Of a DNA stretch of 64,000 bases, positions 16,861-51,720 are shown in pieces. Location: NCBI GenBank assembly GCA_965226165.1, contig CBDDCI010000002.1, positions 656 to 64,655 of the forward strand. The letters are read 5' to 3'. The number at the start of each line of letters is the position of its first letter. The stretch's first letter is position 1. The notes beneath the pieces are model-generated. The model did no database searches and was not told the DNA's origin. It saw nothing but the letters and a program-made list of their open reading frames with translations. The DNA is from Mycoplasmatales bacterium (GTDB lineage Bacteria > Bacillota_I > Bacilli_A > CBDATW01). Made by a program: the position numbers and the translations under genes.

Positions 16861-17234
16861 CGACAAGTGAACGTTGGAGCTTCCGATTTTCCCAGCCAGG
16901 AGTAGCGAAATTCATTGCTTATGTTGTTTTACCTTTAGTGAAGCTCGATCTAGGAAATAGAATCGTATCGTATATTATATGATAAACTTGGAATTTTTGT
17001 TAAATTCGATTTGTAACTCAATGAAAGACTAATAGATAAGTGAAGACGAGGTAACGTATGAAACAAAATCATATGTGCATGCACCTCTGCAAGATGTCTT
17101 TTTCCAAATTAGTTCAACAAATGTAATATCACAATCGCTAACATTTCATTACCGCGCATTTCAAAATCACAACGATAATGAAGCCCACAGTAATTTTGAA
17201 AGCTTCTCTAATCTATTTTATAGTGTATATTTCT

Positions 17235-17905
17235 CTATTGGTTACTACTAGATAAACTCCTCTAGCGTCCAAAATGTAAAAAAATAACCTGTTTTTCGTG
17301 TGTAACACCGCCCGATGTGGACGGTTTGGGTATATTTAGGACGAAGTTACATAATTGCGGTCGCGCAGGTATTTTTTCAATATCTTTTTAAATACGTTAA
17401 CACAATAGTCAAATGTCATAGGGTTTTTCAAAAACACGAAAAAACACATGGTCGATTTTGAAGTTAGAAATGAAATAAAGTTTAATATATCGAAGCGAGG
17501 GATGTATCCGAAAGATTGTTGCAAAATACAACCGTCGGATGCAAACCACATTCCAACTCATTACATTCATATTATACAATCTTGTCATCATATCATGACC
17601 TCTCGCTTCGCTCGAGGCCATGAATTTGACAATATTGCATGTAATATCATTCCATTCGTTTCCATGTGGTTTGCGTCGACTATTGTTTTTTTACAACTTT
17701 CTCCCGCTACCTCAATCAGAATATTATACAATTTAAAATATAAACAACACAAAATTTAAATTAAATTTAAACGAAATAAAAATATTACCGCATCAATATA
17801 ATATAACTCTTAAATATACCCAAACCGTCCACATCGGGCGGTGTTACACACGAAAAACAGGTTATTTTTTTACGTTTTGGACGCTAGAGGAGTTTTATCT
17901 AGTAG
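17235..17905 (+). mobile_element. MITE-like non-autonomous element with ~100 bp TIRs.
   Basis: CTAGATAAACTCCTCTAGCGTCCAAAATGTAAAAAAATAACCTGTTTTTCGTGTGTAACACCGCCCGATGTGGACGGTTTGGGTATATTTA at 17235-17340 is reverse-complemented at 17810-17905. A partial inverted copy lies at 51230-51720. Confidence 0.7.
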
Positions 17906-17939
17906 TACATGGGGATAGGGCTATTTTAGGATTAATTGT

Positions 17940-18392
17940 TTTTTATGTTATTCATTTGTTATTACTATGTAACGATTATTTGAATGACTCAGATTTTTTA
18001 TCGCTGTTTTTCGAGTTATTTACGGGTTATGAAGCGATAAGTGTGATTATTTGTCGAAAAAATATGAGCTGTTAAAGTAGGGTTAAGAAATTATGATGAA
18101 ATTTAAATTAGTATGAAATGAGTATGAAATTATATGAAAATAGTGTTGAGTTGTTATTACCATGTAACGATTATTTGAATGACTCGAATTTTTTATCGCT
18201 GTTTTTCGAGTTATTTACGGGTTATGAAGGGATAATTGTGATTATTTGTCGAAAATACGAGCTGTTAAAGTAGGGTTAAGTAGTTATAACAAAATTTTAA
18301 CTTGTTAGAAAATTAGTATGAAATGAGTATGAAATTATATGAAATTAGTCTGAAATTATATGAAATGAGTATGAAATTATATGAAATTAGTA
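17940..18392 (+). repeat. Satellite S, made of ~180 bp units plus ATGAAAT(T/G)AGTATGAAATTATATGAAA microrepeats. It forms the left flank of copy 2.
   Basis: Unit gttgttattaccatgtaacgattatttgaatgactcagattttttatcgctgtttttcgagttatttacgggttatgaagcgataa.tgtgattatttgtcgaaaa...gctgttaaagtagggttaag, present twice here. Confidence 0.75.
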
Positions 18393-19160
18393 GTATACAT
18401 TCCTCCGAATTCTCTCAAAATGAAAAATAGGAAGAACAAATTTGCCAGTTTCTCGGGGAGATCCGTTTAAATATGTTGATATCTTGTACTCGAGCATTTC
18501 AGGGGTCGTTTTTTGGGTCGTACAGACAAAAACTGAAAATATGACAAAATCTTGCAATATTTAAAGCTCCAATTTTCAACATTGATAATAAATAATAATC
18601 AAATATTGTTTTTAAGATGAAAATGATATAGAAAAAAAAAATATCTTCAAATATTCTTTAGTAATAAAAAAACATATTCTAAACCAATTTTAAAAAACCT
18701 CTCGAGATAAATGCTTTTAAAATGGGGAATTTACAAGATTCAATGCGCGTCTCCATTTCATTCCGTTCGCTTCGCTCACTTCATTCCATTTCGACGTGCA
18801 TTGAACTTTTTTTCTTAAAAATTAACCAGACTCCGCTAATTAATTTTCTTGATTAAGCTCACTAAAAATCCCCAATATACTCGAATATGGATATATATAT
18901 ATTTAAACGGATCTCCCAGAGAAACTGGCAAATTTGTTCTTCCTATTTTTCATTTTGAGAGAATTCGGAGGAATGTATACTACTTGTTCGAATAGATGTT
19001 TATTCATATTTTTGTTAGGTTTGTCAGGGTTTGTCAGTGGCGATGATTTTTTGTTTGTTTCTATATGACTCGGTATTATTTTCGAATTTACTGACGAAAA
19101 TGTAACGAAAAAATACTGAGTCATTAAAAAACAAACTTTGAATGTTGACATTTTTTTCTC
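18392..19160 (+). repeat. Left terminal inverted repeat of copy 2.
   Basis: Reverse complement of 34800-35680 with indels. An ~85 bp terminal block (AGTATACATTCCTCCGAATTCTC...GATCCGTTTAAATAT) is repeated in inverted orientation ~500 bp inward at 18897-18985. Confidence 0.8.
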
Positions 19161-20400
19161 ATTTATATATATGAATTTTTTTCAAATTTTTTAAAATAAT
19201 TTTTTTTTCAAATTTTTATATATGAATTTTTCTATTTTTTTTTAAAAATAATTTTTTTCAAATTTTGAATTTTTCCAATGATAATTTATATAGTCTTAAA
19301 ATAATAAATGGGTTATAGATTGTTAGTCATTTGTTTTTCATTTGATAGATGATTTATATATGAATTTTTTTCTATTTTTTTTTAAATTTTTATATATGAA
19401 TTTTTTCTATTTTTTATATATGAATTTTTTCTATTTTTTTTATATATGAATTTTTTCAATTTTTTTATATATGAATTTTTTCTATTTTTATATATAAATT
19501 TTTTCTATTTTTTTCAAAGTTAGTTAGTTAATGAATTAGTATTCTTTATTTTTTTCATTTAATATCTTATCGGGAACTTTGAAAATAATATTGAGTCATT
19601 AACTAACTAACTTTGAAAAATATATAAAATTTTTTTGAAAAATATAAAATTTTTTGAAAATTATATATAAAATTTTTTTGAAAAATAAAAAAATTATATA
19701 AGATTTTTTTTGAAAATTATATAAAATTTTTTAATATATTTTATTTTGACTCTTAATATAATAACACATCAAAAAAATTTCAATAAATATTTATGCATTT
19801 GTCACATAAAATTCTTGAGTATATGATTATATGGTTGTATATTATGTTATTTTTTTAAAAGTTGGTATTTTTACTGACGAATAATGAAGGTTTAGTTTTA
19901 TATTTTTTCAAAGTTAGTTAGTTAATGACTCAGTATTATTTTCAAAGTTTTCGGCAAAATATTAAATGAAAGATATAAAATAATGTGAAGTCATTAAAAA
20001 ACAAATTTTTGAAATTATATAAAAAATTTTTTTCAAATTTTTTTTGAAAATTATATAAAATTTTTTTAAATTTATACCATCTAATATAGTAACACATAAA
20101 TTTACATATATTATTTATGTATTTTGTGAGTATATTTTTTAATATATATTTATTTAATGGTAATATTATGGTATTTAAAAAATAATTTTATATTTTTTAT
20201 TAAATAATAAATTTTTTTTCAAAATTTCCTTTATGAATAACTACCTTGAAAAGTAGAGTGCAGTGAGATTTGTTAAAAATATTGATAAATATAGTAATTT
20301 AAAAGTTAAAATATTGCAAAAATAGTCATTTAAGAAAATTTTATTTTTTTAAAAAATATTATAAGATTTTTATTTGAAGAAAATTTTATTTTTTTTATTC
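19160..20400. repeat. AT-rich subterminal region of tandem and palindromic repeats between the left TIR and the pPolB 3' end.
   Basis: TATATATGAATTTTTTCTATTTTTT tandem copies. Hairpins built around TGACTCAGTATT / AATACTGAGTCA cores (19060-19160, 19500-19640, 19900-20000). Confidence 0.6.
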
Positions 20401-20403
20401 TAT

Positions 20404-22368
20404 TTACAAAGTATGAGGGATATTAGAGTTTATATCTTTTATATATCTCTTATCATTTAAAAACTCGATATTGTATTTTGTTACTTCTTTAGTAGAAATT
20501 TTTTGTTTTTTTACTGAAATAATATTAAAAGAAATCTTTTCAGGTTTATTATTATTCAATAATGTTTCTTTAAACAAAATATGATCTATATATTGTTTTG
20601 AAAAAGAATCTGAAAGACCTTTTGTATGTAAAATATTATTTTTCATTTTATAATTATTATTTTCTATATGATTTTTACAAATATAACTATTACATTTTGA
20701 AGACAAAAATATACCTTCTTGAATGGGATTATGTAAAATTTCTGGTTCTGGTTCTATTTGACCTATATCACTTCCAAAAAAATCTTTATTATTTTCAAGT
20801 ATTTCTAGATATTTTTCATGAGACATGTTTAATTTGGCGTAAATACTATCTGTATCCATATACAAAACTTTATAATCATTTCCAAATAATTTAGGATATA
20901 TTTTATATAAATAATTATACATATGAACTTTACTATTTTGTAAAATAATACTACCTATTAAAATTGGATAACTATAAACAACCGACGTTTTTTCCATTTC
21001 TAATATAGACAAATTTTTATTAACAATATTTCTAGAATTATAATTTGGTTTTTTAACATATTTATCAACTTGTTCTTCAGTTGTGACAATCTTAAAATTT
21101 TTAAATCTTTCAACTCTCGTCATCATTACTCCAAATAAGGAATTCATTAATATTTTAAAAGTATTACTCATTCCTTTATTTTTTATTGATTTATAATATG
21201 ATTTTTTTTCAAATAAAATGTCTATATAAGGTCTCATAAAATTAGTATGTTTGTATTCTAATATTTTTTTAACATTAATTTTATATCCTAAAGATTTTAA
21301 CATTTCATACATTTCAAATGAAATATAACTATTTTTATCGTATCCTAAATGGCTTATTAATTTTTCAGATGATTTATAATTCTCTTTCAAATTTTTTCTC
21401 TGAAAATCTGATAATTGATTATATAAAATTCGTGATTTACTAATTAATGAGGAAAATTGTGATAATGTTTTATTGTTTAAAACTTTTTTCGTTGTATAAA
21501 TTTCAACATTTAACAAACAACCAAACGATTTTGATTGACCATATCTATCTTTATCAAATTTAGAAACAAATTTGTAATTACTAATTGGAAGTTTCTGAGT
21601 CATAACATAAGGATATAAACTAACAACATCGCATGATGATATAACTGATTTTTCATTATCATTATCTACAATGTTTTGAGAAGCAACGCATAAACCTCCT
21701 AATATGCTTGAATCAGTATAATCAAACATTGTAATATCTTTAAATAATTCTATTTTAACTTTTGTATATTTCAACATTAAATCTAAGGATAGTGAACAAC
21801 TTGTTATATATTTAGAACAATCTATCTCGAATTTATCCCAAATAGTGTTTCTAAATGTATTGAATATATCAGCTTGCAAACATATGTCCAATTTCATATA
21901 AATTTCTAAATAATCTTTAACATTTTTACATTTTAATTTTTTATAAATTTCCAATGTTTTATCATATTCTTCTTTTTTAATATCTCGTAATTTTAAACTG
22001 GAATAAAATTTATCAATTGATGGGAGTTCTTTATCAAAAATATTATCTTTCGTCAACCATTCATAAGGAAAAGCTGTTTTAATTTTAAGTATTTCAAAAT
22101 TATCTGAAAAATGTTTCTTAGTAATAATTTCATATTTATCTAACAGATTTTTAGATAATTCAGATAATGAACCTTTTATAAAATTAGAAATATCTAATAA
22201 TTTAAAACTATATTTCATATTTTTAAATTTAAAATTAACCATTTTGAAAGATTCACATGAATTACCTATAGTGTTTAATGTTATTTCATCTTTATAAATA
22301 TCACATAAAGATTTTAATAAAATTGAATTATCATATTTCATTCCATTAAAGAAATATATAGGAATCAT
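20404..22368 (-). CDS. Protein-primed family B DNA polymerase, C-terminal polymerase portion.
   Basis: Motif A DVVSLYPYVM, motif B KILMNSLFGVMM, motif C YMDTDSIYAKL. The gene is disrupted upstream: a frameshift at ~22350, a TAA at ~23820 and a frameshift at ~24680. Whole gene 20404-24983. Confidence 0.8.
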   Translation of the reverse strand: MIPIYFFNGMKYDNSILLKSLCDIYKDEITLNTIGNSCESFKMVNFKFKNMKYSFKLLDISNFIKGSLSELSKNLLDKYEIITKKHFSDNFEILKIKTAFPYEWLTKDNIFDKELPSIDKFYSSLKLRDIKKEEYDKTLEIYKKLKCKNVKDYLEIYMKLDICLQADIFNTFRNTIWDKFEIDCSKYITSCSLSLDLMLKYTKVKIELFKDITMFDYTDSSILGGLCVASQNIVDNDNEKSVISSCDVVSLYPYVMTQKLPISNYKFVSKFDKDRYGQSKSFGCLLNVEIYTTKKVLNNKTLSQFSSLISKSRILYNQLSDFQRKNLKENYKSSEKLISHLGYDKNSYISFEMYEMLKSLGYKINVKKILEYKHTNFMRPYIDILFEKKSYYKSIKNKGMSNTFKILMNSLFGVMMTRVERFKNFKIVTTEEQVDKYVKKPNYNSRNIVNKNLSILEMEKTSVVYSYPILIGSIILQNSKVHMYNYLYKIYPKLFGNDYKVLYMDTDSIYAKLNMSHEKYLEILENNKDFFGSDIGQIEPEPEILHNPIQEGIFLSSKCNSYICKNHIENNNYKMKNNILHTKGLSDSFSKQYIDHILFKETLLNNNKPEKISFNIISVKKQKISTKEVTKYNIEFLNDKRYIKDINSNIPHTL

Positions 22369-23680
22369 TCTTTATTTGAAGGTTGCATTCTCTACATATA
22401 AATCCTAATATACTATTTTCTTTGAAAGCATGATCATGATGAATGACTTTGATTTTATTTTCAATTATGTTTTCATTCTTTATATTATCTGTTGAAACTC
22501 TTATTCCAAATTCTGGAAAATGATCTTCTATATTTTTAAATGATAATTTCATATTAATTTCAGTTTTTTCTAAAATAATTTTTTCTAAATCATTTATACT
22601 AAAATGTTTGCTTTTATCATCAGAATATATTTTTAAGCCATCATATTCAAGAGTGAATATATTTATTCTTTTAATAACAAAATAGTTTATCATGATTTGT
22701 AATATTTGGTTTTCAATATCTAAAATGATTCTACTTAAGTTCTTTCCCAAGTGATTATAACCCTTTTCAAAATATCGTTTATCTTTTGAATAAAAATATT
22801 TTTGTATTTCTATAATTTCTTTTTCTAATAATTTCAAATAATTATTGATTCTATTATCATCAGAATATTTTTCTTTAAAGCCTCCGTTTAGAATAGTTAA
22901 AAACCTTTCCTTAACAGATTTTCTATTATTACCAAATGAATTTAAAATCAATTCTCTATTTTCAACATAATTCTTTAAAATATTACAACTTATTTCATAT
23001 TTCTGACATAAATTTAGTAATATAACAGGATGAGCATTAATCATATCGATGTCTTTTATATTTTTAGGCATAATAGAATTTCTAATTTCTTTTTTTAGAT
23101 AAGATAAACAACTTCCAACTCCATAATACCTGTTTTTACATTTATGTTTTTGTTTGTATTGAATTCTTTTTCTACCCGAATCATCTAAACTATCGTAATA
23201 ATTTCTTGCTAAATTATTTACTTCTTCATTATAATCATTATTATCTAATATATATTTTAATTTTTCTTTATCTACTATTTCATTTAAAATAATGCATCTA
23301 TCATTATGAGGATGATCAAATTCACAATCACAATATTTACATTTCAAAGTATTATCGAATTCGTTTTGATCAAAATTTAAATAATCAATAGGATTTTGTA
23401 AATATTTTTCTTCAATTTCTTCTATATATTTTAATTCGTTATACAAACTTTCTGTATATTCTTCTAAATAATAAAAAGTTTGAATGTTTTTACTATATTC
23501 ATCATTTTTGCATTCTAATAAATACCCTCCTGATATAAATTTATGTTCTTTAGTATTCGGGTCTATAACACATTCAAAATGGCTATGAATTAACCAATTT
23601 CTTTTAATACAATTTTTTAAATTTTCAAAATACATGTATTTTTTAAAATTAGGTAATAATTTTTTAGGTTTTCTATTCAT
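22346..23680 (-). CDS. Protein-primed family B DNA polymerase, middle portion (exonuclease/TPR region).
   Basis: Collinear with copy 3 fragments 46272-48107 (for example KNIKDIDMINAHPVIL, LEYDGLKIY, HHDH...CRECNLQIKN). It ends at the frameshift where copy 3 reads on into MYFFNGMKYDNSI. Confidence 0.7.
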   Translation of the reverse strand: MNRKPKKLLPNFKKYMYFENLKNCIKRNWLIHSHFECVIDPNTKEHKFISGGYLLECKNDEYSKNIQTFYYLEEYTESLYNELKYIEEIEEKYLQNPIDYLNFDQNEFDNTLKCKYCDCEFDHPHNDRCIILNEIVDKEKLKYILDNNDYNEEVNNLARNYYDSLDDSGRKRIQYKQKHKCKNRYYGVGSCLSYLKKEIRNSIMPKNIKDIDMINAHPVILLNLCQKYEISCNILKNYVENRELILNSFGNNRKSVKERFLTILNGGFKEKYSDDNRINNYLKLLEKEIIEIQKYFYSKDKRYFEKGYNHLGKNLSRIILDIENQILQIMINYFVIKRINIFTLEYDGLKIYSDDKSKHFSINDLEKIILEKTEINMKLSFKNIEDHFPEFGIRVSTDNIKNENIIENKIKVIHHDHAFKENSILGFICRECNLQIKNDSYIFL

Positions 23681-23821
23681 ACAATATTCAATATGAAAGT
23701 TATATTTTTCTTTACTATAAAAACTATTTAAGCAATTTCTACATGATTTAACAACATGAGAATTGTTACCAATAAAAATATTTATGTTTTTTATTAAAAT
23801 ATAATGATTTATTTCATCTAT

Positions 23822-24571
23822 TTATAATAAATCTAAATCTTTGTCATATGTTTTTAAAGATTTTCTAATAATTTTTTTACTAGCTAATTTTTTATTACAT
23901 CCGAATATATGAATATTACATTCTAAAAAAATTTCTATTTCATCAATTTCACCTATTGAAATGTTTTCAAAATCTGTATTATGTTCATCAATTAATTCTT
24001 TTGAAATTTTTATATCTTTTTTATTAATTCTAGAAATATTTTTTTCAATGGGGTTCAAATGTTTTCTAATGTAGCAATATAACAAGCATTTGTTATCATT
24101 TAAGTTTTTAATAATTACTAAATTTTTCTTTTTGAAAAACACATCAGGAATCTTATCAATTTCTTTTGAATCACCTGCAAAGAATATATTACATTCTGAC
24201 ATTTTTATAAGTAGTCTTGTGTTTTGAATGATTTTCATTTGACTAGCATCATATTCGATATCTCCTTCAGAAATAATGTTAATTTGTTCTTGATCAATAG
24301 GCGTTCCATCAAAAACGTCTCTATCTCTTCCGTATAAATCATCAAAATCAAAACTTTTTAAATGTTTAAAATTCTTTAAATTTAGTTTGTCTATATTATC
24401 AATTTCACTCATATTATTAATATTAAATTTTTCTATCCAAAAATTAGTTAAATCATCTTTTACAGATTGATTATATTTATATATACTTATTTTATATTCT
24501 TTATCCTTTTTTCTATGTTTTAAAATTAATGACTTAACTTTATCTTTAAAATATAAATCTTTATAAAACAC
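23822..24571 (-). CDS. Protein-primed family B DNA polymerase, N-proximal portion.
   Basis: Collinear with copy 3 45463-46901 (VFYKDLYFKD..., NDNKCFLYCYIRK, NIHIFGCNKK). It is separated from the next part by a single in-frame TAA. Confidence 0.6.
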   Translation of the reverse strand: MFYKDLYFKDKVKSLILKHRKKDKEYKISIYKYNQSVKDDLTNFWIEKFNINNMSEIDNIDKLNLKNFKHLKSFDFDDLYGRDRDVFDGTPIDQEQINIISEGDIEYDASQMKIIQNTRLLIKMSECNIFFAGDSKEIDKIPDVFFKKKNLVIIKNLNDNKCLLYCYIRKHLNPIEKNISRINKKDIKISKELIDEHNTDFENISIGEIDEIEIFLECNIHIFGCNKKLASKKIIRKSLKTYDKDLDLL

Positions 24572-24677
24572 ATCCTTATCAATTATATGAAAATCAATGA
24601 TTATATCAATAAATTTCTTTTTAATAGAAGTTCTTTTTTTTATTGTAAAATTTTTATCAAAATTATCAATATGTTGT

Positions 24678-24983
24678 TTAGAAAAAATAATGTTCTTTAT
24701 TTACAGTTTCGTCACATAATAGACAATCAAATTTTTCACATTCATTACAAAATTTTAAATAAGAAGTATTATGTTTTTCACAAAATGAATATCCTTTTCT
24801 AATATTCACCATTTTATCTAATCTATGTTCATTACAATATAGAATTTCTTTTTTTCCTGAATAGTTATAAGAAGATAATTTCTTACAATTATTTATAATA
24901 CAATATTTTTTATATTTTAAAATTTCCCCCTCTGGGGTCATATAAAAATATTCATTCAATTTTGTTATTTTCTTACTACCCAT
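24678..24983 (-). CDS. N-terminal Cys-rich (zinc-finger) domain of the polymerase gene. It is frameshifted relative to the downstream part.
   Basis: YCIINNC...YCNEHRL...FCEKH...CNECEKFDCLLCDETVNKEHYF matches the N-terminus of copy 3 45463-46170, where it is fused in frame. Confidence 0.5.
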   Translation of the reverse strand: MGSKKITKLNEYFYMTPEGEILKYKKYCIINNCKKLSSYNYSGKKEILYCNEHRLDKMVNIRKGYSFCEKHNTSYLKFCNECEKFDCLLCDETVNKEHYFF

Positions 24984-25069
24984 ATATAATAACTATATAT
25001 AAATATTCATATGGATTTTTAAAAATTACAGATTTTTTCATCTTGATGATTAGAACAATAATTATATTT

Positions 25070-25498
25070 TTAAATAATAAGGGTTAAATTCTGATAGTTA
25101 TTTAAAATTCTATCATTACAATAATCTTTAATAAATTTTGCATAACAATAAATATTATTTTTAATTAGTATTTTATCTACAATTGATTTATAAGTTTCAT
25201 TTTCATTTAAAATAAAATTATTCTTTTTTAATAAAAACATTATATATTCTCTGTTGTCATATACATGTTTTTTAAATATTAATTTTTTAGATTTAGTTAA
25301 TATATATTTTCTTTTTAATAAATAATACATATTTATATTATATTTTTTAAAAATATTATCAATATTAAATTTTTGAATATCTCTGTCTAAATAATAAATA
25401 TCAAATATTTTTATTAATACATTTTTAATGATATCATCAGATTCTTCATTGTTATCATTTTTTAATATGTTTTTTAATATGTCTATGTAAGTATCCAT
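25070..25498 (-). CDS. Hypothetical protein, 142 aa. It is a positional and weak sequence counterpart of copy 3 44039-44503.
   Basis: ORF with an ATG, lying between the pPolB and integrase genes and divergent from the integrase. Weak similarity in the KKYNINMYYLLKRKYIL region. Confidence 0.35.
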   Translation of the reverse strand: MDTYIDILKNILKNDNNEESDDIIKNVLIKIFDIYYLDRDIQKFNIDNIFKKYNINMYYLLKRKYILTKSKKLIFKKHVYDNREYIMFLLKKNNFILNENETYKSIVDKILIKNNIYCYAKFIKDYCNDRILNNYQNLTLII

Positions 25499-25593
25499 AT
25501 ATTTGTATTTATATTTTATACATATATAAATTTTATATTTTTAATCTAAATAAAATATATAGAATTGGTAAATATTTTTATATAATATATAAA

Positions 25594-26913
25594 ATGACAA
25601 TTGACATACATAAAGTGATAACTGGGAATCCTATAACAAAAAATTTAATGAAACCATGGGGTAGTAATAAAGAAAAAACAATTTTTAATAAATATACAGG
25701 TCCTGGGAACGATTTAAAAAAACAACTTGATTTTAATTCATATACAGGAGAAATTTATAAAATTCATGATCAACCTTCTTCTTCAAATGATAGATGTTCT
25801 ATGTTGCATGATGTTGCATATACAGTAGCTCAAAATATTGGAAAAAATAATAAAGATATTAAAAGATTAAAACATATAGCTGATGATAAATGGTTGAAAT
25901 GTTTTAAATCAAGGTCTCCCTGGGATATAGCAGCTTATTCGAGTATTAAATCTAAAAAAGTATTGGGACTAGGTAATAATTTTACAATAGAAGACCTTAG
26001 TCAAGAATTAAACAAACCTGTTATTAATAAATTTGAAAGGAAAAAAGTTATTGTGAATCATATAGATGAAATTCATTCTTGTGATTTAGTTGATATGGTA
26101 AAATATTCTAAAATGAACAAGGGATATAAATATATTTTTACAAATATTGATATTTTTTCAAAATATGCATGGAGTTTTCCTATTAAATCTAAAAATATTA
26201 AAGACATTAAACCATGTTTTGAAAAAATATTTAAAGAACGAAAACCTAAATATATTTGGTCAGATCAAGAATCAGCTTTTTTCTCTAATGAAATGTTAAA
26301 ATTTTTTGAAGATCATAACATAAAGATTTATCATACTTATTCAAATCTAAAAGCGGTTGCTATAGAACGATTTAATAGATCACTAAGAGAGTTAATGATG
26401 AAAGAATTTGTTAAAAATAATAATACAGTTTGGTATAATATTTTACCTGAACTAATAAAAAAATATAATAATAGATATCATAATACTATAAAAATGAAAC
26501 CAATTGATGTTAATAAAACAAATGAAAAATATATAAAAAATACTATATACAATTATAATATGACAAATAAAAAACCAAAATATAAAATTAATGATTTAGT
26601 TCGTATCAGTTTAAAAAGAAGAGAATTATTTGACAAACCTACTGGTAATATTAAATGGTCAGAAGAATTATTTAGAATTTATAAAATAAATAAATCGAAT
26701 GTTATAACATATCAATTAAAAGACATGAATGATGAAATTATTAAAGGCATTTTTTATGAAAAGGAACTACAATTAACAAAAAATATCACAGGGGAATATA
26801 TAATAGAAAAAATATTGAAGACTAATAAAAATAAAATACATGTAAAATGGAGAGGATACAATTCATCCTTTAATAGTTGGATCAATAAAAACAGTGTAAC
26901 AAAATATATATAA
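25594..26913 (+). CDS. Retroviral-type (rve, DDE) integrase with a C-terminal chromodomain.
   Basis: HSCDLVDM...GYKYIFTNIDIFSKYAWSFPIKSK (D, D), YHTYSNLKAVAIERFNRSLRE (E), chromodomain EYIIEKILKTNKNKIHVKWRGYNSSFNSW. Intact 439-aa ORF. Confidence 0.9.
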   Translation: MTIDIHKVITGNPITKNLMKPWGSNKEKTIFNKYTGPGNDLKKQLDFNSYTGEIYKIHDQPSSSNDRCSMLHDVAYTVAQNIGKNNKDIKRLKHIADDKWLKCFKSRSPWDIAAYSSIKSKKVLGLGNNFTIEDLSQELNKPVINKFERKKVIVNHIDEIHSCDLVDMVKYSKMNKGYKYIFTNIDIFSKYAWSFPIKSKNIKDIKPCFEKIFKERKPKYIWSDQESAFFSNEMLKFFEDHNIKIYHTYSNLKAVAIERFNRSLRELMMKEFVKNNNTVWYNILPELIKKYNNRYHNTIKMKPIDVNKTNEKYIKNTIYNYNMTNKKPKYKINDLVRISLKRRELFDKPTGNIKWSEELFRIYKINKSNVITYQLKDMNDEIIKGIFYEKELQLTKNITGEYIIEKILKTNKNKIHVKWRGYNSSFNSWINKNSVTKYI

Positions 26914-27046
26914 AAAATGACACAATTTATAAAAATGTATGTCACAGTTTTTATAGAGTTTTAAGTATAAAAATGACACAATTTATAAAAATGTATGTCA
27001 CAGTTTTATTAAATGAATTTCACAAAAAAATATATTATAATTATAT
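26914..27046 (+). promoter_or_regulatory. Intergenic direct repeats (2 x 38 bp) with TGACAC/GTCACA half-sites downstream of the integrase.
   Basis: AAAATGACACAATTTATAAAAATGTATGTCACAGTTTT occurs twice. Analogous GTGTCAT / ATGTCAT arrays follow the integrase in copy 1 (7040-7200) and copy 3 (38344-38698). Confidence 0.45.
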
Positions 27047-28141
27047 ATGACTACTTTTAAGGAAATAGACATTAATGAATATAAAAAATTATTAGATAAT
27101 ATGCAACACACATATGCAAAAACTTTTAATAATATTGAATTATTACATAATTTTGAAGAAAATATAAATGATAAAAATATTGGAACTGTTATTAAAGATA
27201 AAGAGTCATTAGAAAAAGAAGATAAATATATTGATAAATTAAGTGATAAATTATCAGAAAAAATTACAAATTCTAATAATAATAATAATAATATTATACA
27301 AGATAAGAAAAAATATGTTTTTTTAAACACACATGATTATTACAGTAAAAATCCAAAAGATATTTTAAACTATATTAAAAAAATATATATAAAATCAAAC
27401 ATTGGTTATGATAAAATATATAAACCAAGACCTAAAACTGTTAATGTAAGTCTTGGTAATATTATTAAAAAAATAGAAAATGATGATAAAATATCTAATG
27501 AACTCAAAGATGATTTTATTGATGCTTATAATAACATACCAAATAAGACAAGTATTCAATTTCATAATAAATATTATAGAGAATATGTTATGGAACCTAT
27601 TGAAAGGTATTATATCGAAAAAAATATCGATGCAGATGATGAAATATCTATTATAAGAGATGATGATCTATCAATTGTTCCCAGTAGTGATAAAGAAGAT
27701 AAATCTTTAAAAGATAAATTAAAATCAAATATTGAAAAAACTGTTGTTAATACTTTAACAGGACAGGGATTACATTTTAATAAAATTAAGATAGATGAAA
27801 ACCTCTTGAAAAAAAATATTTTAAAAGTTAGATATATTAATTCGAACAGAAAAATCAATAATAAATTTTTAAAAGAAGATTATAAAATTTCTAATAACAT
27901 GAAGAATAGTATATTAAAAAATACTGGTTTAAATAAATTAACTAAAAACGAATATAATGTCTATAATACATTACAAAAATATAGGAAAAATGATGATAAT
28001 TTACAATTACTAACATCATCATACTTAGCAGGGAATAAAAATAAAGATCTTTATAGCAAAATAAATGAACTGTTATATAAGAATTATAAAAATAATATCA
28101 TTAATAAAAAACAATATCAGAATATTATAAATAAGTCATAA
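27047..28141 (+). CDS. Lys/Asn-rich conserved Polinton protein, 364 aa, function unknown.
   Basis: The conserved C-terminal block ILKVRYINSNRKINNKFLKEDYKISNNMKN...SSYLAGNKNKDLYSKINELLYKNYKNNIINKKQYQNIINK is shared with copy 1 and copy 3 (38699-39646). Confidence 0.5.
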   Translation: MTTFKEIDINEYKKLLDNMQHTYAKTFNNIELLHNFEENINDKNIGTVIKDKESLEKEDKYIDKLSDKLSEKITNSNNNNNNIIQDKKKYVFLNTHDYYSKNPKDILNYIKKIYIKSNIGYDKIYKPRPKTVNVSLGNIIKKIENDDKISNELKDDFIDAYNNIPNKTSIQFHNKYYREYVMEPIERYYIEKNIDADDEISIIRDDDLSIVPSSDKEDKSLKDKLKSNIEKTVVNTLTGQGLHFNKIKIDENLLKKNILKVRYINSNRKINNKFLKEDYKISNNMKNSILKNTGLNKLTKNEYNVYNTLQKYRKNDDNLQLLTSSYLAGNKNKDLYSKINELLYKNYKNNIINKKQYQNIINKS

Positions 28142-28155
28142 TTATATTATATATA

Positions 28156-28848
28156 ATGACTGAACTAATTCTTAATTCAAACGAACATAAAGTTGATGTA
28201 AATAAATTAAGATATGAATTCAAATCACCTATTAGATTTGATAATTCTTTTGTATCATTAACACAATTTGTCTTTCATAATTTTTTTCATAATGTAAAAC
28301 AAAATTATGAAATGAAAGTGAGGAAAGATAGTACTTTTTATAATATTAGTTTTATAGATTCAATGCTAGAAATTGAAGATATCAATAAAATTATTAATGA
28401 TGAGTTGATAAGACACGAGTTATCAACTGAAGATGATCCTCCTATAATTAATATTATAGGAGATGTAAATACATTTAAAATAATTATTTTAGTTGAAAGA
28501 GGATATGAATTACATTTAGATAATAATTTTGCTAAAATGTTAGGATTTAGTTATAAAATTTTAAAAAAAGATTTGCAAAGAAGTGATTTAATTCCTCAAA
28601 TTAATCGTATTAATTATCTTAAAATTTATTCTAATATTATTGATAATGAAAATAATCCTTATTATCTTAGTTATGTCTTTATCAAGTCAAATGTTTCTGA
28701 ATTAAGTGTTTATAATGAAAATAATATATATAAAAAACAAAAAATAATTAATGATATTTTTGATTATATAGAAATTGAAATTTTTGATGAAGAAAATGAA
28801 AAAATAGAAATGACTGATTACTTTTCAGTTAGTTTATATATTCATTAA
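28156..28848 (+). CDS. Conserved 230-aa protein, a candidate minor capsid (penton) protein.
   Basis: Homologs at 5343-6035 and 39653-40342. TATATATAATG start context. Confidence 0.55.
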   Translation: MTELILNSNEHKVDVNKLRYEFKSPIRFDNSFVSLTQFVFHNFFHNVKQNYEMKVRKDSTFYNISFIDSMLEIEDINKIINDELIRHELSTEDDPPIINIIGDVNTFKIIILVERGYELHLDNNFAKMLGFSYKILKKDLQRSDLIPQINRINYLKIYSNIIDNENNPYYLSYVFIKSNVSELSVYNENNIYKKQKIINDIFDYIEIEIFDEENEKIEMTDYFSVSLYIH

Positions 28849-28857
28849 TTATATATA

Positions 28858-29235
28858 ATGCCTTTACAAAAATTATCAGAAATAGAAGAAAAATTAGGAA
28901 AAGATTATATTGATATTAAAAAAAGATATATTAAATTAAAAAGATGTAAATATGCTCTTTTAATTTTAAAAACAAGTTTATTATCATTATCTATAGGTTT
29001 ATCTTTTTTAAATCCTATATTAATAATAGTATCATCAATCGTTCCTATTATAGATAGTATTATGTTAATAACAAATAAAGATAAAGAAGTCTCTCATTTG
29101 AAATTACAAAAAGATATTATTAACCAAATTATTAAAGAAATTGAAATTAAAAGATATACTTTTGAAAATGATGAAGAAGTTAAAAAATATATTTTAGAAG
29201 TATATGGAAAAATAGAAACATTTTTAGATATATAA
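28858..29235 (+). CDS. Small transmembrane protein, 125 aa.
   Basis: Hydrophobic core LLSLSIGLSFLNPILIIVSSIVPIIDSIMLI. Its position is conserved upstream of the ATPase. Confidence 0.5.
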   Translation: MPLQKLSEIEEKLGKDYIDIKKRYIKLKRCKYALLILKTSLLSLSIGLSFLNPILIIVSSIVPIIDSIMLITNKDKEVSHLKLQKDIINQIIKEIEIKRYTFENDEEVKKYILEVYGKIETFLDI

Positions 29236-29244
29236 TAATATATA

Positions 29245-29883
29245 ATGAAGTTCATAAATTTTGATAATATAGTTAATAAAAATAATGAAAATAATTATAT
29301 TAATAAAAATGTTTTTGTACCTCAACATGTTTCAAATACAATTATTATAGGTCAATCAGGCTGTTCAAAGACAAACCTATTATTCAATATATTAACATTA
29401 AATCCAGTTTTTCAAAAAATATTTATTTTTACTAAAGAACCAGAAGCAAAATATAATTTTCTTATAAAAAAATTTCCTCAAGATATAAAAATTTTTTATC
29501 AAAATGATGAATGTGATTTAGATAAATTAATTAAAGGAGATTTGCAAACCTGTTGTATCTTTGATGATCAACTAACAGATAATAAAAAAATTACTGATTG
29601 GTTCATACGTTCAAGAAAGAAAAATTGTTCTAATTTCTTTTTAGCACATTCATATTTCAAAATGAGTAAAACATTAAGATTGAACGTTAATTATATTATT
29701 TTATTTAAAATTCCTAAAAATCAATTAACTCACATATATAATGATCAACCAATTAATATTGATAGAGAATTATTTTATAAAATCATTTCAGAATTAAATA
29801 GATATGAAAATATTATTATAGATTTAAAAACTCCTATTGATAAATTTCAAATTAGAAAAAATCTGAATGAAATATTATGTTAA
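29245..29883 (+). CDS. FtsK/HerA-superfamily (A32-like) DNA packaging ATPase.
   Basis: Walker A IIIGQSGCSKTN, Walker B-like CCIFDDQ. 212 aa. Confidence 0.85.
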   Translation: MKFINFDNIVNKNNENNYINKNVFVPQHVSNTIIIGQSGCSKTNLLFNILTLNPVFQKIFIFTKEPEAKYNFLIKKFPQDIKIFYQNDECDLDKLIKGDLQTCCIFDDQLTDNKKITDWFIRSRKKNCSNFFLAHSYFKMSKTLRLNVNYIILFKIPKNQLTHIYNDQPINIDRELFYKIISELNRYENIIIDLKTPIDKFQIRKNLNEILC

Positions 29884-29896
29884 TATATAATATATA

Positions 29897-30061
29897 ATGA
29901 TAGTTAACGGTGTTATTGTTTCAAAGGATAAAAATAAATATCAAATAGGAGAAGGACTTAAATTAGTTAAATAAGGATCTGGATTAACAAATACAAAGGG
30001 ATCTGGAATATCAAATGTTAAAAAACTTGTAAAAGGAAATGGACTAAAAATCTTACAATAA
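29897..30061 (+). pseudogene. Small Lys/Gly-rich basic protein gene with an in-frame TAA after codon 25.
   Basis: MIVNGVIVSKDKNKYQIGEGLKLVK*GSGLTNTKGSGISNVKKLVKGNGLKILQ* is in one frame. It is homologous to the intact copy 1 (4136-4339) and copy 3 (41369-41518) versions. Confidence 0.45.
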
Positions 30062-30088
30062 AAAAATAATATTTTATTATAATATATA

Positions 30089-31285
30089 ATGACTAGTGAA
30101 CTGAACCATATCATAAATTTAATAAAATCAAAAAATGAAAAAGTAGAAAACATATGTTATAAAGAAGTACATAAAATTAAATTAGAAAAAAGAGATGGAA
30201 ATAATCCCATCGTTTTTAATACTAAAAGTATTTTAAGTAACTTAATTGATTATAGCAATGCTTACATCGAATTTCAATTTAACATTAAATTTGCAACGGC
30301 TGATGCTTGTACAAAAGCAAATTTAACTCTTAAAAACTCATATGAAATGATTTTGGAATTGAAAATTGAATTAAACAATAGAATCATTTCAAATGAATCT
30401 AATGTTAATTATAGTCATATTATAAATCATCTATTAGAAAATAGTAAAAATGATGATTTAATTTATAGGAATATTGATATTCATACCGATGTTGTCAAAT
30501 ATAACGATACTAAAAAGGATGTTTTTTTAACAAAAAATGGTGATACTATGAGAGTTACTTGCAATGTCTTTTTAAAAGATATTAGTAACTTTTTCAAAAA
30601 TTTACATATGCCCCTAAAATTTTCAGAATTTAATATAACACTTAGATTAGTCGATTCTATCTATGTTACAGATCAACCTGATACAACTCAAACATTAGTA
30701 AGTGCTAATTTATATGTTGATCAAGTAGATTTACATGAAATGGAAGAAATTCAATTTGTTAAAAATTATAATAATTTTGATGTTAATATTCCATTTTTAG
30801 AAAATTTTGTTATTAGAGATTCTCAAAACATAACAGATAATGAGTTTAATGTAGGAGCAAATAATTGTACAAACACAAACGATATGTTTTTAATGTTAGT
30901 TAAAGATGATGTTGTTACAAATAATACTCATACAAATTCTCTTCGTTTACCTAATAAAAGAGCTAAAAATCTTCAATTATATATAGGGAATCAACTATTT
31001 CAAACAGGAATTAAAAGCGATCTAGAAGCTTATTTAGAATTAAAAAAGAGAAGTGAATTCTTTGATGAATTTATCATAGATTACAATAGATTTTTAAATA
31101 ATTATACTATTTATGCTTTTCCAATAAATAGATATAGTAAAAAAGATAAATCGACAAAATATATTAATATAACAGGTGTTGGTATTGATGAAAATGCTTC
31201 AAAAGGTATTTTAGTATGGAGACAAATGTCAAATATTAATCTTAAAATAAATAATAATTCATTAGAAATAAGAAAAACATATTAA
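30089..31285 (+). CDS. Putative major capsid protein (double jelly-roll candidate), 398 aa.
   Basis: Largest conserved structural ORF. Its position between the small basic protein and the pre-protease/protease genes is conserved in all three copies (2929-4107, 41544-42788). No sequence-level proof of a jelly-roll fold. Confidence 0.5.
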   Translation: MTSELNHIINLIKSKNEKVENICYKEVHKIKLEKRDGNNPIVFNTKSILSNLIDYSNAYIEFQFNIKFATADACTKANLTLKNSYEMILELKIELNNRIISNESNVNYSHIINHLLENSKNDDLIYRNIDIHTDVVKYNDTKKDVFLTKNGDTMRVTCNVFLKDISNFFKNLHMPLKFSEFNITLRLVDSIYVTDQPDTTQTLVSANLYVDQVDLHEMEEIQFVKNYNNFDVNIPFLENFVIRDSQNITDNEFNVGANNCTNTNDMFLMLVKDDVVTNNTHTNSLRLPNKRAKNLQLYIGNQLFQTGIKSDLEAYLELKKRSEFFDEFIIDYNRFLNNYTIYAFPINRYSKKDKSTKYINITGVGIDENASKGILVWRQMSNINLKINNNSLEIRKTY

Positions 31286-31300
31286 ATAATTATATAATAC

Positions 31301-31888
31301 ATGGAAGTTAGTTATAAGTTTTCGCCTAAAGAAATACAAAAATTATCTAAGTTTAAAAATCCTTCTATAATTTTAAGAAAAGAGAATATTGTAAAAAATG
31401 GAAAATATAAGGTTCATCTTACTAAAAACATGTTTAATAAATTACTTGAACATAAACAATTGAAATATGTTTTTACTGATAAAAGAAAGGAAAACTATAT
31501 TAGAGAGGGAGGATCATTGGATTCAATTTTTAAAAGTTTATCTCCTCATTTAATTAAATTTGGGAAGAAGCTTTTGCCATCTCTTGGAGTTACTGGAATA
31601 ACAACAACCACTTCTCATCTGATAAATAAATCTTTAAACAAAAAGAAGAAAAAAGGAGGTGATTTAAAAATAGTTTTATCACAATCAGATGTAAATAAAA
31701 TTAATAATGTTTTGAGAAAATTATCAAACATGAAATTAACTAATCACAAATCCATTTCAGAACAAAACGGATCAGGAATTTTTACTCGCTTATTATTGCT
31801 TTTAATTGGGAGTATGATACCATCATTATTAAATAAAGGATCGGGTGTTTGTTGTAATAAAAAAGATAATTTTTTTTTGAAAAAATAA
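31301..31888 (+). CDS. Pre-protease structural protein, 195 aa, with a C-terminal hydrophobic segment and KGSG motifs.
   Basis: ...EQNGSGIFTRLLLLLIGSMIPSLLNKGSGVCCNKKDNFFLKK. It ends inside a T9 run that overlaps the protease ORF. Confidence 0.5.
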   Translation: MEVSYKFSPKEIQKLSKFKNPSIILRKENIVKNGKYKVHLTKNMFNKLLEHKQLKYVFTDKRKENYIREGGSLDSIFKSLSPHLIKFGKKLLPSLGVTGITTTTSHLINKSLNKKKKKGGDLKIVLSQSDVNKINNVLRKLSNMKLTNHKSISEQNGSGIFTRLLLLLIGSMIPSLLNKGSGVCCNKKDNFFLKK

Positions 31889-31935
31889 ATAACAAAGATT
31901 TATACCCAATTTCAAATTTTAAAATTAATGAAATT

Positions 31936-32307
31936 TTGAAAAATAATGAAAATTATATAGGAACTTTTAGTAAAAATAACGTTCCTAAACTTAAAAATAA
32001 TCAATCAACAATATTTAATTTGGCTAATTCAAATGATAAGGGAAGTCATTGGATAGGAATGAAATTTATAAATAACAAATTATTTTATTTTGATTCATAT
32101 GGAATTCCATATATTCCTGATGTTATAAAAAATCAATACTCAGATGATAAAATTATAATAAATATTTATAGAATTCAAAGTAATGATTCAAATGAATGTG
32201 GGAGATTTTGTATAATGTTTATTCAATCAAATATAAAAAATGAATCAGACTATATTAAATTTTTATTACAATTTGAAAAAAATAATTTTGAAAAAAATGA
32301 TATATAA
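31936..32307 (+). CDS. Adenovirus-type (adenain/Ulp1-like) cysteine protease.
   Basis: GSHWIGMKF...FYFDSYGIP...NECGRFCIMF. The track start is TTG, not ATG. The ORF is open back to ~31890 (FFFEKINNKDLYPISNF), just after the TAA of another frame. Confidence 0.7.
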   Translation: MKNNENYIGTFSKNNVPKLKNNQSTIFNLANSNDKGSHWIGMKFINNKLFYFDSYGIPYIPDVIKNQYSDDKIIINIYRIQSNDSNECGRFCIMFIQSNIKNESDYIKFLLQFEKNNFEKNDI

Positions 32308-32313
32308 GTATAT

Positions 32314-32523
32314 ATGATGGATAGTTCTTATTGCCTTAAATGTAAACGAAAAACAAAAAATATTAATTCAAAAGGATTTGTTACAAAAAATAAAAAATAT
32401 TTAGTTAAATCTTTATGTGATATTTGTAAATCTAAAAAAAGTAAATTTGTTTCAAAACAAGATGCTTCTGGTTTTCTTTCAAATCTCTTTTCAAAAATAC
32501 CAATACTAAATAAAATTATATAG
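32314..32523 (+). CDS. Small zinc-ribbon protein, 69 aa.
   Basis: CLKCKRKTKN-x-CDICKSKKSKFVSK, conserved with 1709-1915 and 43836-44042. Confidence 0.55.
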   Translation: MMDSSYCLKCKRKTKNINSKGFVTKNKKYLVKSLCDICKSKKSKFVSKQDASGFLSNLFSKIPILNKII

Positions 32524-32529
32524 TATATA

Positions 32530-33147: not shown

Positions 33148-33159
33148 TTTATATTATAT

Positions 33160-33687: not shown

Positions 33688-33691
33688 ATAT

Positions 33692-34795: not shown

Positions 34796-34799
34796 ATAA

Positions 34800-35680
34800 C
34801 GTTTATAAACAAAAAAATTTCAACATTCAAAGTTTGTTTTTTAATGACTCAGTATTTTTTCGTTACATTTTCGTCAGTGAATTCGAAAATAATACCGAGT
34901 CATATAGAAACAAACAAAAAATCATCGCCACTGACAAACCCTGACAAACCTAACAAAAATATGAATAAACATCTATTCGAACAAGTAGTATACATTCCTC
35001 CGAATTCTCTCAAAATGAAAAATAGGAAGAACAAATTTGCCAGTTTCTCGGGGAGATCCGTTTAAATATATATATATCCATATTCGAGTATATTGGGGAT
35101 TTTTAGTGAGCTTAATCAAGAAAATTAATTAGCGGAGTTTGGTTAATTTTTAAGAAAAAAAGTTCAATGCACGTCGAAATGGAATGAAGTGAGCGAAGCG
35201 AACGGAATGAAATGGAGACGTGCATTTGAACCTTTATTTTTGAAAAAGATTGACGCGGAGTTCTGATTAACTTTTTCGATGGGCGATAAACGATTATCTA
35301 ACACTATCATCATATTCCCAAAATCTTGTAAATTCCCCATTTTAAAAGCATTTATCTCGAGAGGTTTTTTAAAATTGGTTTAGAATATGTTTTTTTATTA
35401 CTAAAGAATATTTGAAGATATTTTTTTTTTCTATATCATTTTCATCTTAAAAACAATATTTGATTATTATTTATTATCAATGTTGAAAATTGGAGCTTTA
35501 AATATTGCAAGATTTTGTCATATTTTCAGTTTTTGTCTGTACGACCCAAAAAACGACCCCTGAAATGCTCGAGTACAAGATATCAACATATTTAAACGGA
35601 TCTCCCCGAGAAACTGGCAAATTTGTTCTTCCTATTTTTCATTTTGAGAGAATTCGGAGGAATGTATACTACTGAAATTA
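34800..35680 (-). repeat. Right terminal inverted repeat of copy 2.
   Basis: Reverse complement of 18392-19160. The terminal ~85 bp block is also present in inverted orientation at 34985-35065. The identical track ORFs 18903-19151 and 34844-35065 are a consequence of the TIR. Confidence 0.8.
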
Positions 35681-50099: not shown

Positions 50100-51180
50100 T
50101 AAATTTTATGATTAAGAAATTTAAAATTTCATCATAACTTCTTAACCTTACTTTAGCAGCTCATATTTTTTCGACAAATAACACTCATTATCACGACATC
50201 GACAGCTAATATCGCGAAAAACAGCCATAAAAAATCTGAGTCGTTTAATTAATCGTTGCACACTAATAACAACTGAACACTATTTTTAAATAATTTACAC
50301 ATCATTTTTATTTTTTTCATATAATTTCATATAATTTCATACTAATTTTTTTCATATAATTTCATACTAATTTTTATATAATTTCATGCTAATTTTCATA
50401 TAATTTCAGACTAATTTCATATAATTTTCATATCATTTTCATACTCATTTCATATAATTTTTCAAATAAATTAAAATTTTGTTATAACTACTTGACCCTA
50501 CTTTAACAGCTCGTGTTTTTTTTTCGACAAATAATCACAATTATCGCTTCATAACCCGTAAATAAATCGAAAAACAGCGATAAAAAATCTGAGTCATTCA
50601 AATAATCGTTACATGGTAATAACAACTCAACACTATTTTCATATAATTTCATACTCATTTCATATAATTTCAGACTAATTTCATTTAATTAATCACAATT
50701 TCGTAATAACAACTCAACACTAATTTCATATAATTTCATACTCATTTCATATAATTTCAGACTAATTTCATATAATTTCATACTCATTTCATACTAATTT
50801 TCTAACAAGTTAAAATTTTGTTATAACTACTTAACCCTACTTTAACAGCTCGTATTTTCGACAAATAATCACAATTATCGCTTCATAACCCGTAAATAAC
50901 TCGAAAAACAGCGATAAAAAATTCGAGTCATTCAAATAATCGTTACATGGTAATAACAACTCAACACTATTTTCATATAATTTCATACTCATTTCATATA
51001 ATTTCATACTCATTTCATACTAATTTAAATTTCATCATAATTTCTTAACCCTACTTTAACAGCTCATATTTTTTCGACAAATAATCACAATTATCGCTTC
51101 ATAACCCGTAAATAACTCGAAAAACAGCGATAAAAAACCTGAGTCATTCAAATAATCGTTACATAGTAATAACAAATGAA
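50100..51180 (-). repeat. Satellite S (reverse orientation), the right flank of copy 3.
   Basis: Reverse complement of 35690-36290 / 17940-18392, including CATATAATTTCATA microrepeats. Confidence 0.75.
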
Positions 51181-51229
51181 TAACATAAAAAACAATTAAT
51201 CCTAAAATAGCCCTATCCCCATGTACTAC

Positions 51230-51720
51230 TAGATAAAACTCCTCTAGCGTCCAAAACGTAAAAAAATAACCTGTTTTTCGTGTGTAACACCGCCCGATGC
51301 GGACGGTTTGGGTATATTTAAGAGTTATATTATATTGATGCGGTAATATTTTTATTTCGTTTAAATTTAATTTAAATTTTGTGTTGTTTATATTTTAAAT
51401 TGTATAATATTCTGATTGAGGTAGCGGGAGAAAGTTGTAAAAAAACAATAGTCGACGCAAACCACATGGAAACGAATGGAATGATATTATATGCAATAAT
51501 GTCAAATTTATGGCCTCGAACGAAGTGAGAGGTCATAATATGATGACAAGATTGTATAATATGAATGTAATGAGTTGGAATGTGGTTGTATCCGACGGTT
51601 GTATTTTGCAACAATCTTTCGGATACATCCCTCGCTTTGACGACTCAAAGATTTTACTCTCATTTCCAATTGAAGACGCTGTAGATGCAAAGCACCATCT
51701 TGAAAATATCTAAGCAAAAT
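51230..51720 (-). mobile_element. Partial inverted copy of the MITE-like element at 17235-17905 (one TIR plus internal region).
   Basis: 51230-51330 matches the TIR. 51340-51700 is the reverse complement of 17340-17800, and track ORFs 51372-51614 and 17448-17759 encode the same peptide. Confidence 0.7.

Follow-up and report, generated by a model that had tools for sequence, protein, structure and literature searches.

A Polinton with (AGT)2 termini, a 6-bp target duplication and a foldback module at each end

The stretch analysed here (the window) comprises 64,000 nt of contig CBDDCI010000002.1 (assembly GCA_965226165.1, positions 656 to 64,655 of the forward strand) and contains three AT-rich blocks of ~19% GC in surroundings of 30-40% GC. 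The block under study, designated copy 2, is by every defining feature tested an integrated, virus-like Polinton/Maverick transposon of the (AGT)2 end-motif class. It spans positions 18389-35673 (17,285 bp), and its ends and its target duplication are ordinary, textbook Polinton features. The outermost 86-88 nt are repeated in inverted orientation about 420-500 bp inward at both ends; as judged from aligned relatives, this nested repeat is a conserved, concertedly evolving feature of the whole element family and not peculiar to copy 2. The explanation given below takes in the Polinton identity and boundaries, the integration, the terminal module, a snap-back role deduced for this module and the nesting of copy 2 in an older Polinton. 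As a whole, it is assigned a probability of about 0.8.

Relatives were obtained at eleven loci (L001-L011), all of them integrated copies from one low-coverage ENA assembly (ERZ25073769). The ends of copy 2 read 5'-AGTAGTATAC...GTATACTACT-3', i.e. 5'-(AGT)2ATAC...GTAT(ACT)2-3'. The decamer AGTAGTATAC is invariant at 12 of 12 outer ends and in all inner arms of ten related elements, and no base outside the decamer is conserved. The inverted repeat of copy 2 itself extends from 18389 to 35673, and the inner arm copies, whose neighbouring sequence is unrelated, likewise start with AGTAGTATAC. The sister copies L010 and L011, which have an identical integrase, are the same through ...GTATACTACT and differ from the next base onwards. 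Whatever the flank, the AG at the start and the T at the end stay the same; they are therefore part of the element, not of the target. An earlier note on this DNA had proposed a Polinton with AG...CT termini, which is borne out by the gene content and by the ends of the relatives, but had placed the ends at 18392 and 35671/2. On the left, the second AGT of (AGT)2 was taken as the start, which sets the end 3 nt inside the true terminus; on the right, the position is short of it by 1-2 nt. The boundaries 18389 and 35673 are given alike by every relative, by the inverted repeat and by the inner copies. The alignment with other copies which the note had suggested as a check yields agreement on the decamer in all relatives and shifts the start 3 nt outward. 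The combination 5'-(AGT)2//(ACT)2-3' with a 6-bp duplication is the commonest end type of vertebrate Mavericks, and the AGT reiteration has been proposed to serve jump-back in protein-primed initiation (PMC8097293). Terminal reiteration as in adenoviruses is present as AGT AGT at the ends of copy 2 and as TAC TAC T in a second family described below.

As is established for the family, the rve integrase joins both element ends across a 6-bp staggered cut, which results in the target duplication. At copy 2, the hexamer GAAATT is found at both junctions, and an uninterrupted counterpart of the insertion site occurs in the same window (Table 1), as the earlier note had advised to look for within the satellite. 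The surroundings of this empty site match the flanks of copy 2 with 100% identity over 280 nt on the left and 99% over 215 nt on the right. The two flanks share 10 nt at the empty site (TGAAATTAGT); once AGTAGT/ACTACT are taken as the ends, the duplication comes down to GAAATT, i.e. 6 bp. Both ends are in hand only for copy 2 and for L004, which lies in non-repetitive DNA and has ATCTGT on either side, again a duplication of 6 bp. For Polintons, the norm is 6 bp and the accepted range 5-8 bp (PMC10748475, PMC8097293). The duplication of 8-9 bp suspected before is thus reduced to 6 bp on the basis of the empty site and the AGTAGT/ACTACT ends; the caution that the repetitive flank makes it ambiguous was justified. 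An apparent repeat of 9-10 bp arises because the hexamer together with the flanking T and AG(T) mimics the ends of the element. The earlier parse, an element AGTATAC...GTATACT(AC) with a target duplication TGAAATTA(GT) of 8-10 bp, does accommodate the whole flanking direct repeat, which spans 10 bp (TGAAATTAGT) at copy 2 and 9 bp (TATCTGTAG) at L004. However, AG and T would then be derived from the target, yet 12 outer ends whose flanks are unrelated, and every inner arm, have them without variation; the two ends would be out of symmetry by 1-2 nt; and the published motif is (AGT)2//(ACT)2 with a 6-bp duplication (PMC8097293). Almost no credence is given to this parse.

Copy 2 contains a protein-primed family B polymerase (pPolB), an rve integrase, a packaging ATPase and a protease, besides terminal inverted repeats (TIRs), the 6-bp duplication and AG...CT ends, which together characterize Polintons/Mavericks (Table 1). 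The polymerase gene is distributed over three frames: a tblastn search with the intact 1535-aa product of L011 matches frames -3, -1 and -2, which means at least two frameshifts, although the TIRs are near-perfect. The C-terminus of the integrase has a weak chromodomain match (Chromo, E = 0.0094) and its N-terminus (residues 33-98) has the phospholipase A2 (PLA2) catalytic motifs YTGPG and HDVAY (Phospholip_A2_4, E = 0.0014), both under the curated cut-offs. Thus, a PLA2-like domain appears to be fused to the integrase of copy 2, as far as these motifs indicate; in adintoviruses, PLA2-like domains are known as separate virion proteins (PMC8502044). The open reading frame (ORF) 30089-31285 is a candidate for the gene of the double-jelly-roll major capsid protein, as suggested by structural modelling. 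Its AlphaFold2 (AF2) model is of low confidence (pLDDT 56) owing to a shallow alignment, and Foldseek hits to double-jelly-roll capsids of giant viruses, virophages and adintoviruses reach E-values down to 8e-11 with TM-scores of only 0.2-0.27. A Pfam scan of the penton candidate at 28156-28848 gave no match. Copy 2 belongs to a family that is plentiful elsewhere: searches returned 886 relatives of the capsid ORF at E ≤ 1e-3 and 1,899 of the integrase at E ≤ 1e-50, and the best matches listed were 72-93% identical.

Table 1. Coordinates of the features discussed, in window positions.
Feature	Position	Strand	Basis
Left copy of the 6-bp duplication GAAATT	18383..18388	+	junction read; empty site holds GAAATT once
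Right copy of the 6-bp duplication GAAATT	35674..35679	+	junction read
Uninterrupted insertion-site counterpart ATATGAAATTAGTGTTGAG	50713..50731	-	only exact match in the window
Left TIR, 769 bp, begins AGTAGTATAC	18389..19157	+	matched to right TIR: 352/352 nt, then 418/424
Right TIR, about 863-865 bp, ends GTATACTACT	34811..35673	-	self-comparison with left TIR
Left foldback module (arm-spacer-arm), 596 bp	18389..18984	+	self-comparison
Left module, outer arm	18389..18476	+	arm alignment
Left module, inner arm, inverted copy with one mismatch (T for G, arm position 67)	18897..18984	-	
Right foldback module, 690 bp; arms 34984-35071 and 35586-35673 (86 nt, perfect)	34984..35673	-	
Conserved spacer hairpin, stem AATGCGCGTC / GACGTGCATT	18742..18802	+	RNAalifold, alignment of relatives
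Second foldback module, 665 bp, 97-nt arms starting TACTACTAGAT, 467-nt spacer	17243..17907	+	self-comparison
Inverted duplicate of 17493-18388 + 35680-36298, 97% over 1538 nt	50101..51637	-	window self-comparison
Protein-primed family B polymerase with N-terminal EsV-1-7 cysteine motif	20398..24974	-	Pfam DNA_pol_B_2 E = 4.4e-27; EsV_1_7_cys E = 3.4e-9
rve integrase	25594..26913	+	Pfam rve E = 3e-11, 43.9 bits vs cut-off 32.6
A32-like packaging ATPase	29245..29883	+	Pfam Pox_A32 E = 5.6e-8
Double-jelly-roll major capsid candidate, 398 aa	30089..31285	+	no Pfam match; Foldseek on AF2 model
Adenovirus-type (adenain-like) cysteine protease	31936..32307	+	Pfam Peptidase_C5 27.3 bits vs cut-off 21.3

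The long TIRs which the earlier note had estimated at ~0.8 kb measure 769 bp (left) and ~865 bp (right) with 99-100% identity, and fall within the Polinton range of about 0.05-1.5 kb (PMC10748475, PMC8097293). The segments 18389-18740 and 35322-35673 (352 nt) are 100% complementary, and the segments 18742-19157 and 34811-35226 (416 nt) 99%. The right TIR contains 95 additional nt (35227-35321). All relatives carry this stretch as well, therefore the left TIR is taken to have a deletion.

The outer part of each TIR is formed by the terminal module, past which the TIR runs on inward for 175-750 bp. The first 21 nt of copy 2 occur four times, compared to 0.01 occurrences expected by chance. The inverted repetition of the ~85-bp terminus ~500 bp inward, as described before, was confirmed at both ends, and the suggested hairpin can fold as a stem of 86-88 bp (minimum free energy -149 kcal/mol, z = -14). 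Self-comparison of each locus revealed the arrangement arm-spacer-arm at 12 of 12 ends of ten elements, with arms of 84-98 nt ~500 bp apart, spacers of about 420-545 nt and units of 596-749 bp. When folded as single-stranded DNA, the units form a stem of 84-88 bp with -147 to -149 kcal/mol, compared to about -60 to -68 for shuffled sequences. An alignment of nine elements has 56 variable columns among the 81 of the arm and a mean pairwise divergence of 37%, whereas the outer and inner arm of one unit differ at just 0-2 positions, and the four arms of each element are identical or nearly so. Conservation of the arms between elements does not exceed that of the spacer (0.47-0.51 vs 0.60, window against L004), and invariant arm positions are limited to the first 10 nt, TCC at 16-18 and CAAAAT at 28-33. 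Since the arms vary freely between elements but match within, it is the complementarity which is kept, not the sequence. Incomplete units were seen at three loci. L002 has a partial tandem duplicate, in which the last 210 bp of the right end and ~2.3 kb of a 42-bp satellite (GCAGTATGTACTGCTTAGTCCCTACCAGCCGG...) adjoin the element (16959-17043, 19335-19543); the left end of L010 (2169) is without its first 32 nt, i.e. the module is terminally truncated; and of L005 (3509-3966) just the outer 460 bp of the module are left.

The spacer contains a conserved hairpin, for which RNAalifold predicts 18 pairs in an alignment of nine elements, 9 of them with compensatory double changes. The region is present at 18742-18815 and 35150-35224 and also in L001-L010. 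Its loop holds CATTCC-type and CGCTTCGCTC motifs, the repeats of which are expanded in L007, and an invariant CTTTTTTTCTTAAAAAT (T7 run) follows after the hairpin. By its appearance, hairpin plus T7 run resembles a terminator or a cruciform that binds protein. Scanning the window against Rfam and for tRNAs gave no matches. The spacer is collinear from outer to inner arm in 10 of 10 aligned ends and has the same orientation in 12 of 12 modules; flip and flop forms were not seen.

This fixed orientation bears on the question whether the ends are self-priming hairpin telomeres of the parvovirus type, which would imply rolling-hairpin replication. The 3' end of each strand can indeed form an 85-bp stem with a paired 3'-OH, and the PLA2-like motifs of the integrase recall parvovirus VP1u. 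However, hairpin transfer should yield both flip and flop, the element has a protein-primed polymerase and a jump-back end-motif, and the Rep/NS1 HUH nickase family is absent among the 17 ORFs scanned against Pfam. The fixed spacer orientation and the lack of a Rep gene contradict parvovirus-like hairpins, and such an origin of the ends is considered highly improbable.

A second foldback module sits ~480 bp to the left of copy 2. Its terminal decamer (TACTACTAGA) matches the decamer AGTAGTATAC of the first family, to which copy 2 belongs, at 0 of 10 positions (17243-17252 vs 18389-18398); its first 7 nt read AGTAGTA in reverse complement, and the termini of both families are trinucleotide reiterations. 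In arm positions 11-45, 19-23 of 35 positions match the arms of family 1; none of 20,000 shuffles attained this value. The spacer holds CGCTTCGCTC, CATTCCATT and a T7 run, ordered as in family 1. Judged by these matches, the second module is homologous to that of family 1.

The second module (17243-17907) probably forms the left terminus of an older Polinton, copy 3, the TIR of which contains the satellite into which copy 2 was inserted. Regarding this satellite, the earlier note was right in that copy 2 stands inside a repeat array, the period of which is 11 bp (consensus AAATTAGTATG), but the "satellite" is probably the subterminal part of the TIR of copy 3. The TIR of copy 3 would then be made up of the foldback module and ~1.1 kb of units of 195-216 bp which contain the 11-bp AAATTAGTATG arrays; a similar AAATTAGTATG-type array also adjoins copy 1. 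The motif ATGACTC(A/G)G with a T-run, which forms a small inverted pair in the inner TIR of family 1 (19065-19128, 34844-34907), is found in each ~200-bp satellite unit as well (17984, 35804, 50589, 51139); this common motif links the satellite to Polinton subterminal repeats. An inverted duplication of 1.5 kb brackets copy 3 and includes the inner arm of the second module and 315 nt of its spacer. Its left copy continues outward into the complete unit of 665 bp. Its right copy, at 50101-51637, breaks off at unit position 251; it probably represents the right TIR of copy 3 minus the outermost 250 bp. An alternative delimitation, in which this duplication is a simple TIR ending at 17493 and 51637, was rejected: neither an end-motif nor a duplication is present there, and truncation of the right module fits better. 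No other inverted repeats of its own were found for copy 3. The interval 17243-51637 minus copy 2 amounts to ~17 kb. On the simplest reading, which we consider likely, copy 2 is nested in the left TIR and subterminal repeats of copy 3 (about 17243-51637).

L009, the only other locus of the second family, has neither satellite nor module. The polymerase module (36299-50100 vs L009) is at the right end of copy 3 on the plus strand, on the same side of L009 on the minus strand, and at the left end in family 1; by this comparison, it has moved or been inverted between lineages. A GC-richer block of ~350 nt occurs at 8738-9093 (-) and 36292-36638 (+), i.e. in copies 1 and 3 with 86% identity, between the subterminal repeats and the integrase gene. 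It gave no Rfam match and has no obvious ORF.

Any model of the module has to deal with four arms rewritten together, free drift of their sequence, a fixed orientation of the spacer and the presence of the architecture in two families. To our knowledge, replication of Polintons and adintoviruses and the upkeep of their identical long TIRs have never been shown experimentally. A reiteration such as AGT AGT lets a protein-primed polymerase start internally, jump back and regenerate the end. In the working proposed here, the 3'-terminal arm of a displaced or damaged (eroded) single strand would snap back onto the inner arm. This would recreate the duplex end at which the polymerase-primer complex starts and would be a local stand-in for the adenovirus panhandle. 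Through exonucleolytic proofreading and resynthesis, the terminus could then take over the sequence of the inner arm, and such copying would homogenise the arms before integration while the spacer is not inverted. Tentatively, at least two Polinton lineages may therefore carry a cis-acting foldback module by which each end can rebuild or repair its own replication origin, with the inner arm as master copy.

A different origin of the arms would be mobility of the modules themselves, either as mini-elements or as alternative integrase substrates, in the manner of composite transposons (insertion sequence (IS)-cargo-IS) or of parasites like miniature inverted-repeat transposable elements (MITEs), which move or replicate alone. 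Outer and inner arms do share the terminal decamer in the orientation an independent element needs, the size of 0.6-0.75 kb is MITE-like, and a mini-genome that replicates by way of panhandle pairing could homogenise its arms as well. Yet solo modules are absent from ~290 kb (the window plus eleven loci), in which only the partial tandem duplicate of L002 and the truncated ends of L005 and L010 were encountered. Nor does the module have a duplication of its own: the outer flank is GAAATT, whereas the inner arm is followed by TGTTCG, an element sequence conserved across relatives, and the TIR extends 175-750 bp past the module. We regard autonomous modules as unlikely.

Less likely again is a functionless historical accident, e.g. 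a strand-switch duplication, whose palindrome persists through gene conversion in the chromosome. Conversion is known to occur between inverted repeats that lie near one another, and the arm sequence is unconserved beyond a few motifs; both fit such an accident. Against it, the layout (arms of ~85-100 nt, spacer of ~420-545 nt) persists where the arms are only ~45-50% identical and also in the second family, the spacer has conserved motifs and a covarying hairpin, and none of 12 ends has an inverted spacer. Furthermore, the arms of copy 3 differ by 1-2%, and its left and right TIRs by 2.2-3.3%. The arms have diverged about as far as the TIRs, so homogenisation seems to precede integration, for which copy 3 lends weak support.

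Several points weigh against the overall explanation. All relatives come from a single assembly, which limits their independence. The duplication length is read from two elements (n = 2) and one empty site that is a paralogous one. In both of these elements, a T precedes and an AG follows the hexamer, resembling the element ends; the AG after the hexamer is absent in four copies having only the right end. To meet this T-N6-AG context twice is an unlikely coincidence; it is treated here as coincidence or mild microhomology. The frameshifted polymerase of copy 2 may indicate early decay, or else a homopolymer or assembly error. Regarding the nesting, which we still hold likely, the outer ends of copy 3 yield no duplication because its right end is truncated, and L009 lacks the satellite and the module. 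The case against gene conversion after integration depends on very few substitutions, all in one element, and the part that snap-back would play in replicating or repairing the ends is purely inferred, from integrated copies.

Compared to vertebrate and other animal Mavericks (PMC8097293), copy 2 is alike in its pPolB, rve integrase, ATPase, protease and putative capsid genes, its size of ~17 kb, TIRs within the reported 46-1,447 bp, the identical 6-nt end-motif and the perfect 6-bp duplication. It is unlike the Mavericks described in its 19% GC within a host region of 30-37% GC, in the foldback module which starts each TIR with four concertedly evolving arms, and in the PLA2-like motifs fused to the integrase. 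With the inverted terminal repeats of adenoviruses (panhandle, CATCAT jump-back) it shares a protein-primed polymerase, a terminal trinucleotide reiteration and identical repeats kept homogeneous via single-strand pairing; in contrast, the putative pairing partner in copy 2 is an inverted copy ~0.5 kb away at the same end, so that each end could fold by itself. The composite transposons Tn5 and Tn10 (IS-cargo-IS) likewise have flanks bounded by inverted ends identical to the outer ones ("outside" and "inside"), but the modules of copy 2 have no transposase, are embedded in longer TIRs, were not seen as solo copies and have arms homogenised per element. Foldback elements (Drosophila FB, Galileo) also have long, structured TIRs capable of forming hairpins and subterminal tandem repeats; they differ in cut-and-paste transposition by P- or MULE-type transposases and in TIRs made of tandem repeats, whereas copy 2 has one arm-spacer-arm unit with its own terminus twice (PMC3573991). 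Parvovirus telomeres have terminal sequences which self-fold too, but copy 2 is a dsDNA element with a protein-primed polymerase, a loop of 420-545 nt, no flip/flop and no Rep nickase. In the literature searched, excluding the original 2006-2007 papers and Repbase, no description of nested or foldback Polinton ends was found, which is absence of evidence only. With moderate confidence, the foldback module with concerted arms is apparently an undescribed Polinton variant.

Outside this assembly, an exact look-up of the copy 2 integrase returned no record, scans of IMG/VR and the JGI metagenomes with the integrase gave no relatives, and neither did scans of IMG/VR with the terminal 25-mer and a degenerate arm pattern. 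A Tara scaffold (L012), the sole match to the degenerate pattern in the JGI metagenomes, lies inside a coding region of 42% GC and was discarded as a chance hit. At 52064-53296 (-), the window contains fragments of a reverse transcriptase of a non-LTR retrotransposon (long interspersed nuclear element, LINE; FRKCHSTETA... FFDLKKAFDTVDH). Together with a nearby HTH_animal domain, these fragments point to an animal host, as far as the encoded domains can tell. At 60145-62883, a GC-richer part of the host DNA, there is a 120-bp tandem array of ~21 copies with 70-85% identity.

While the corrected ends and the 6-bp target duplication matter for annotation only, the module offers a hint as to the way in which such elements copy or mend their termini. 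Four arms rewritten jointly amid free drift are a clear footprint of a copying step acting on the ends before integration. If true, the snap-back module would be a new device of end maintenance in the Polinton/adintovirus/adenovirus lineage and would explain why long Polinton TIRs are structured. Furthermore, a satellite adjoining a Polinton can be the subterminal repeat of an older Polinton, such that Polintons would nest in each other's TIRs.

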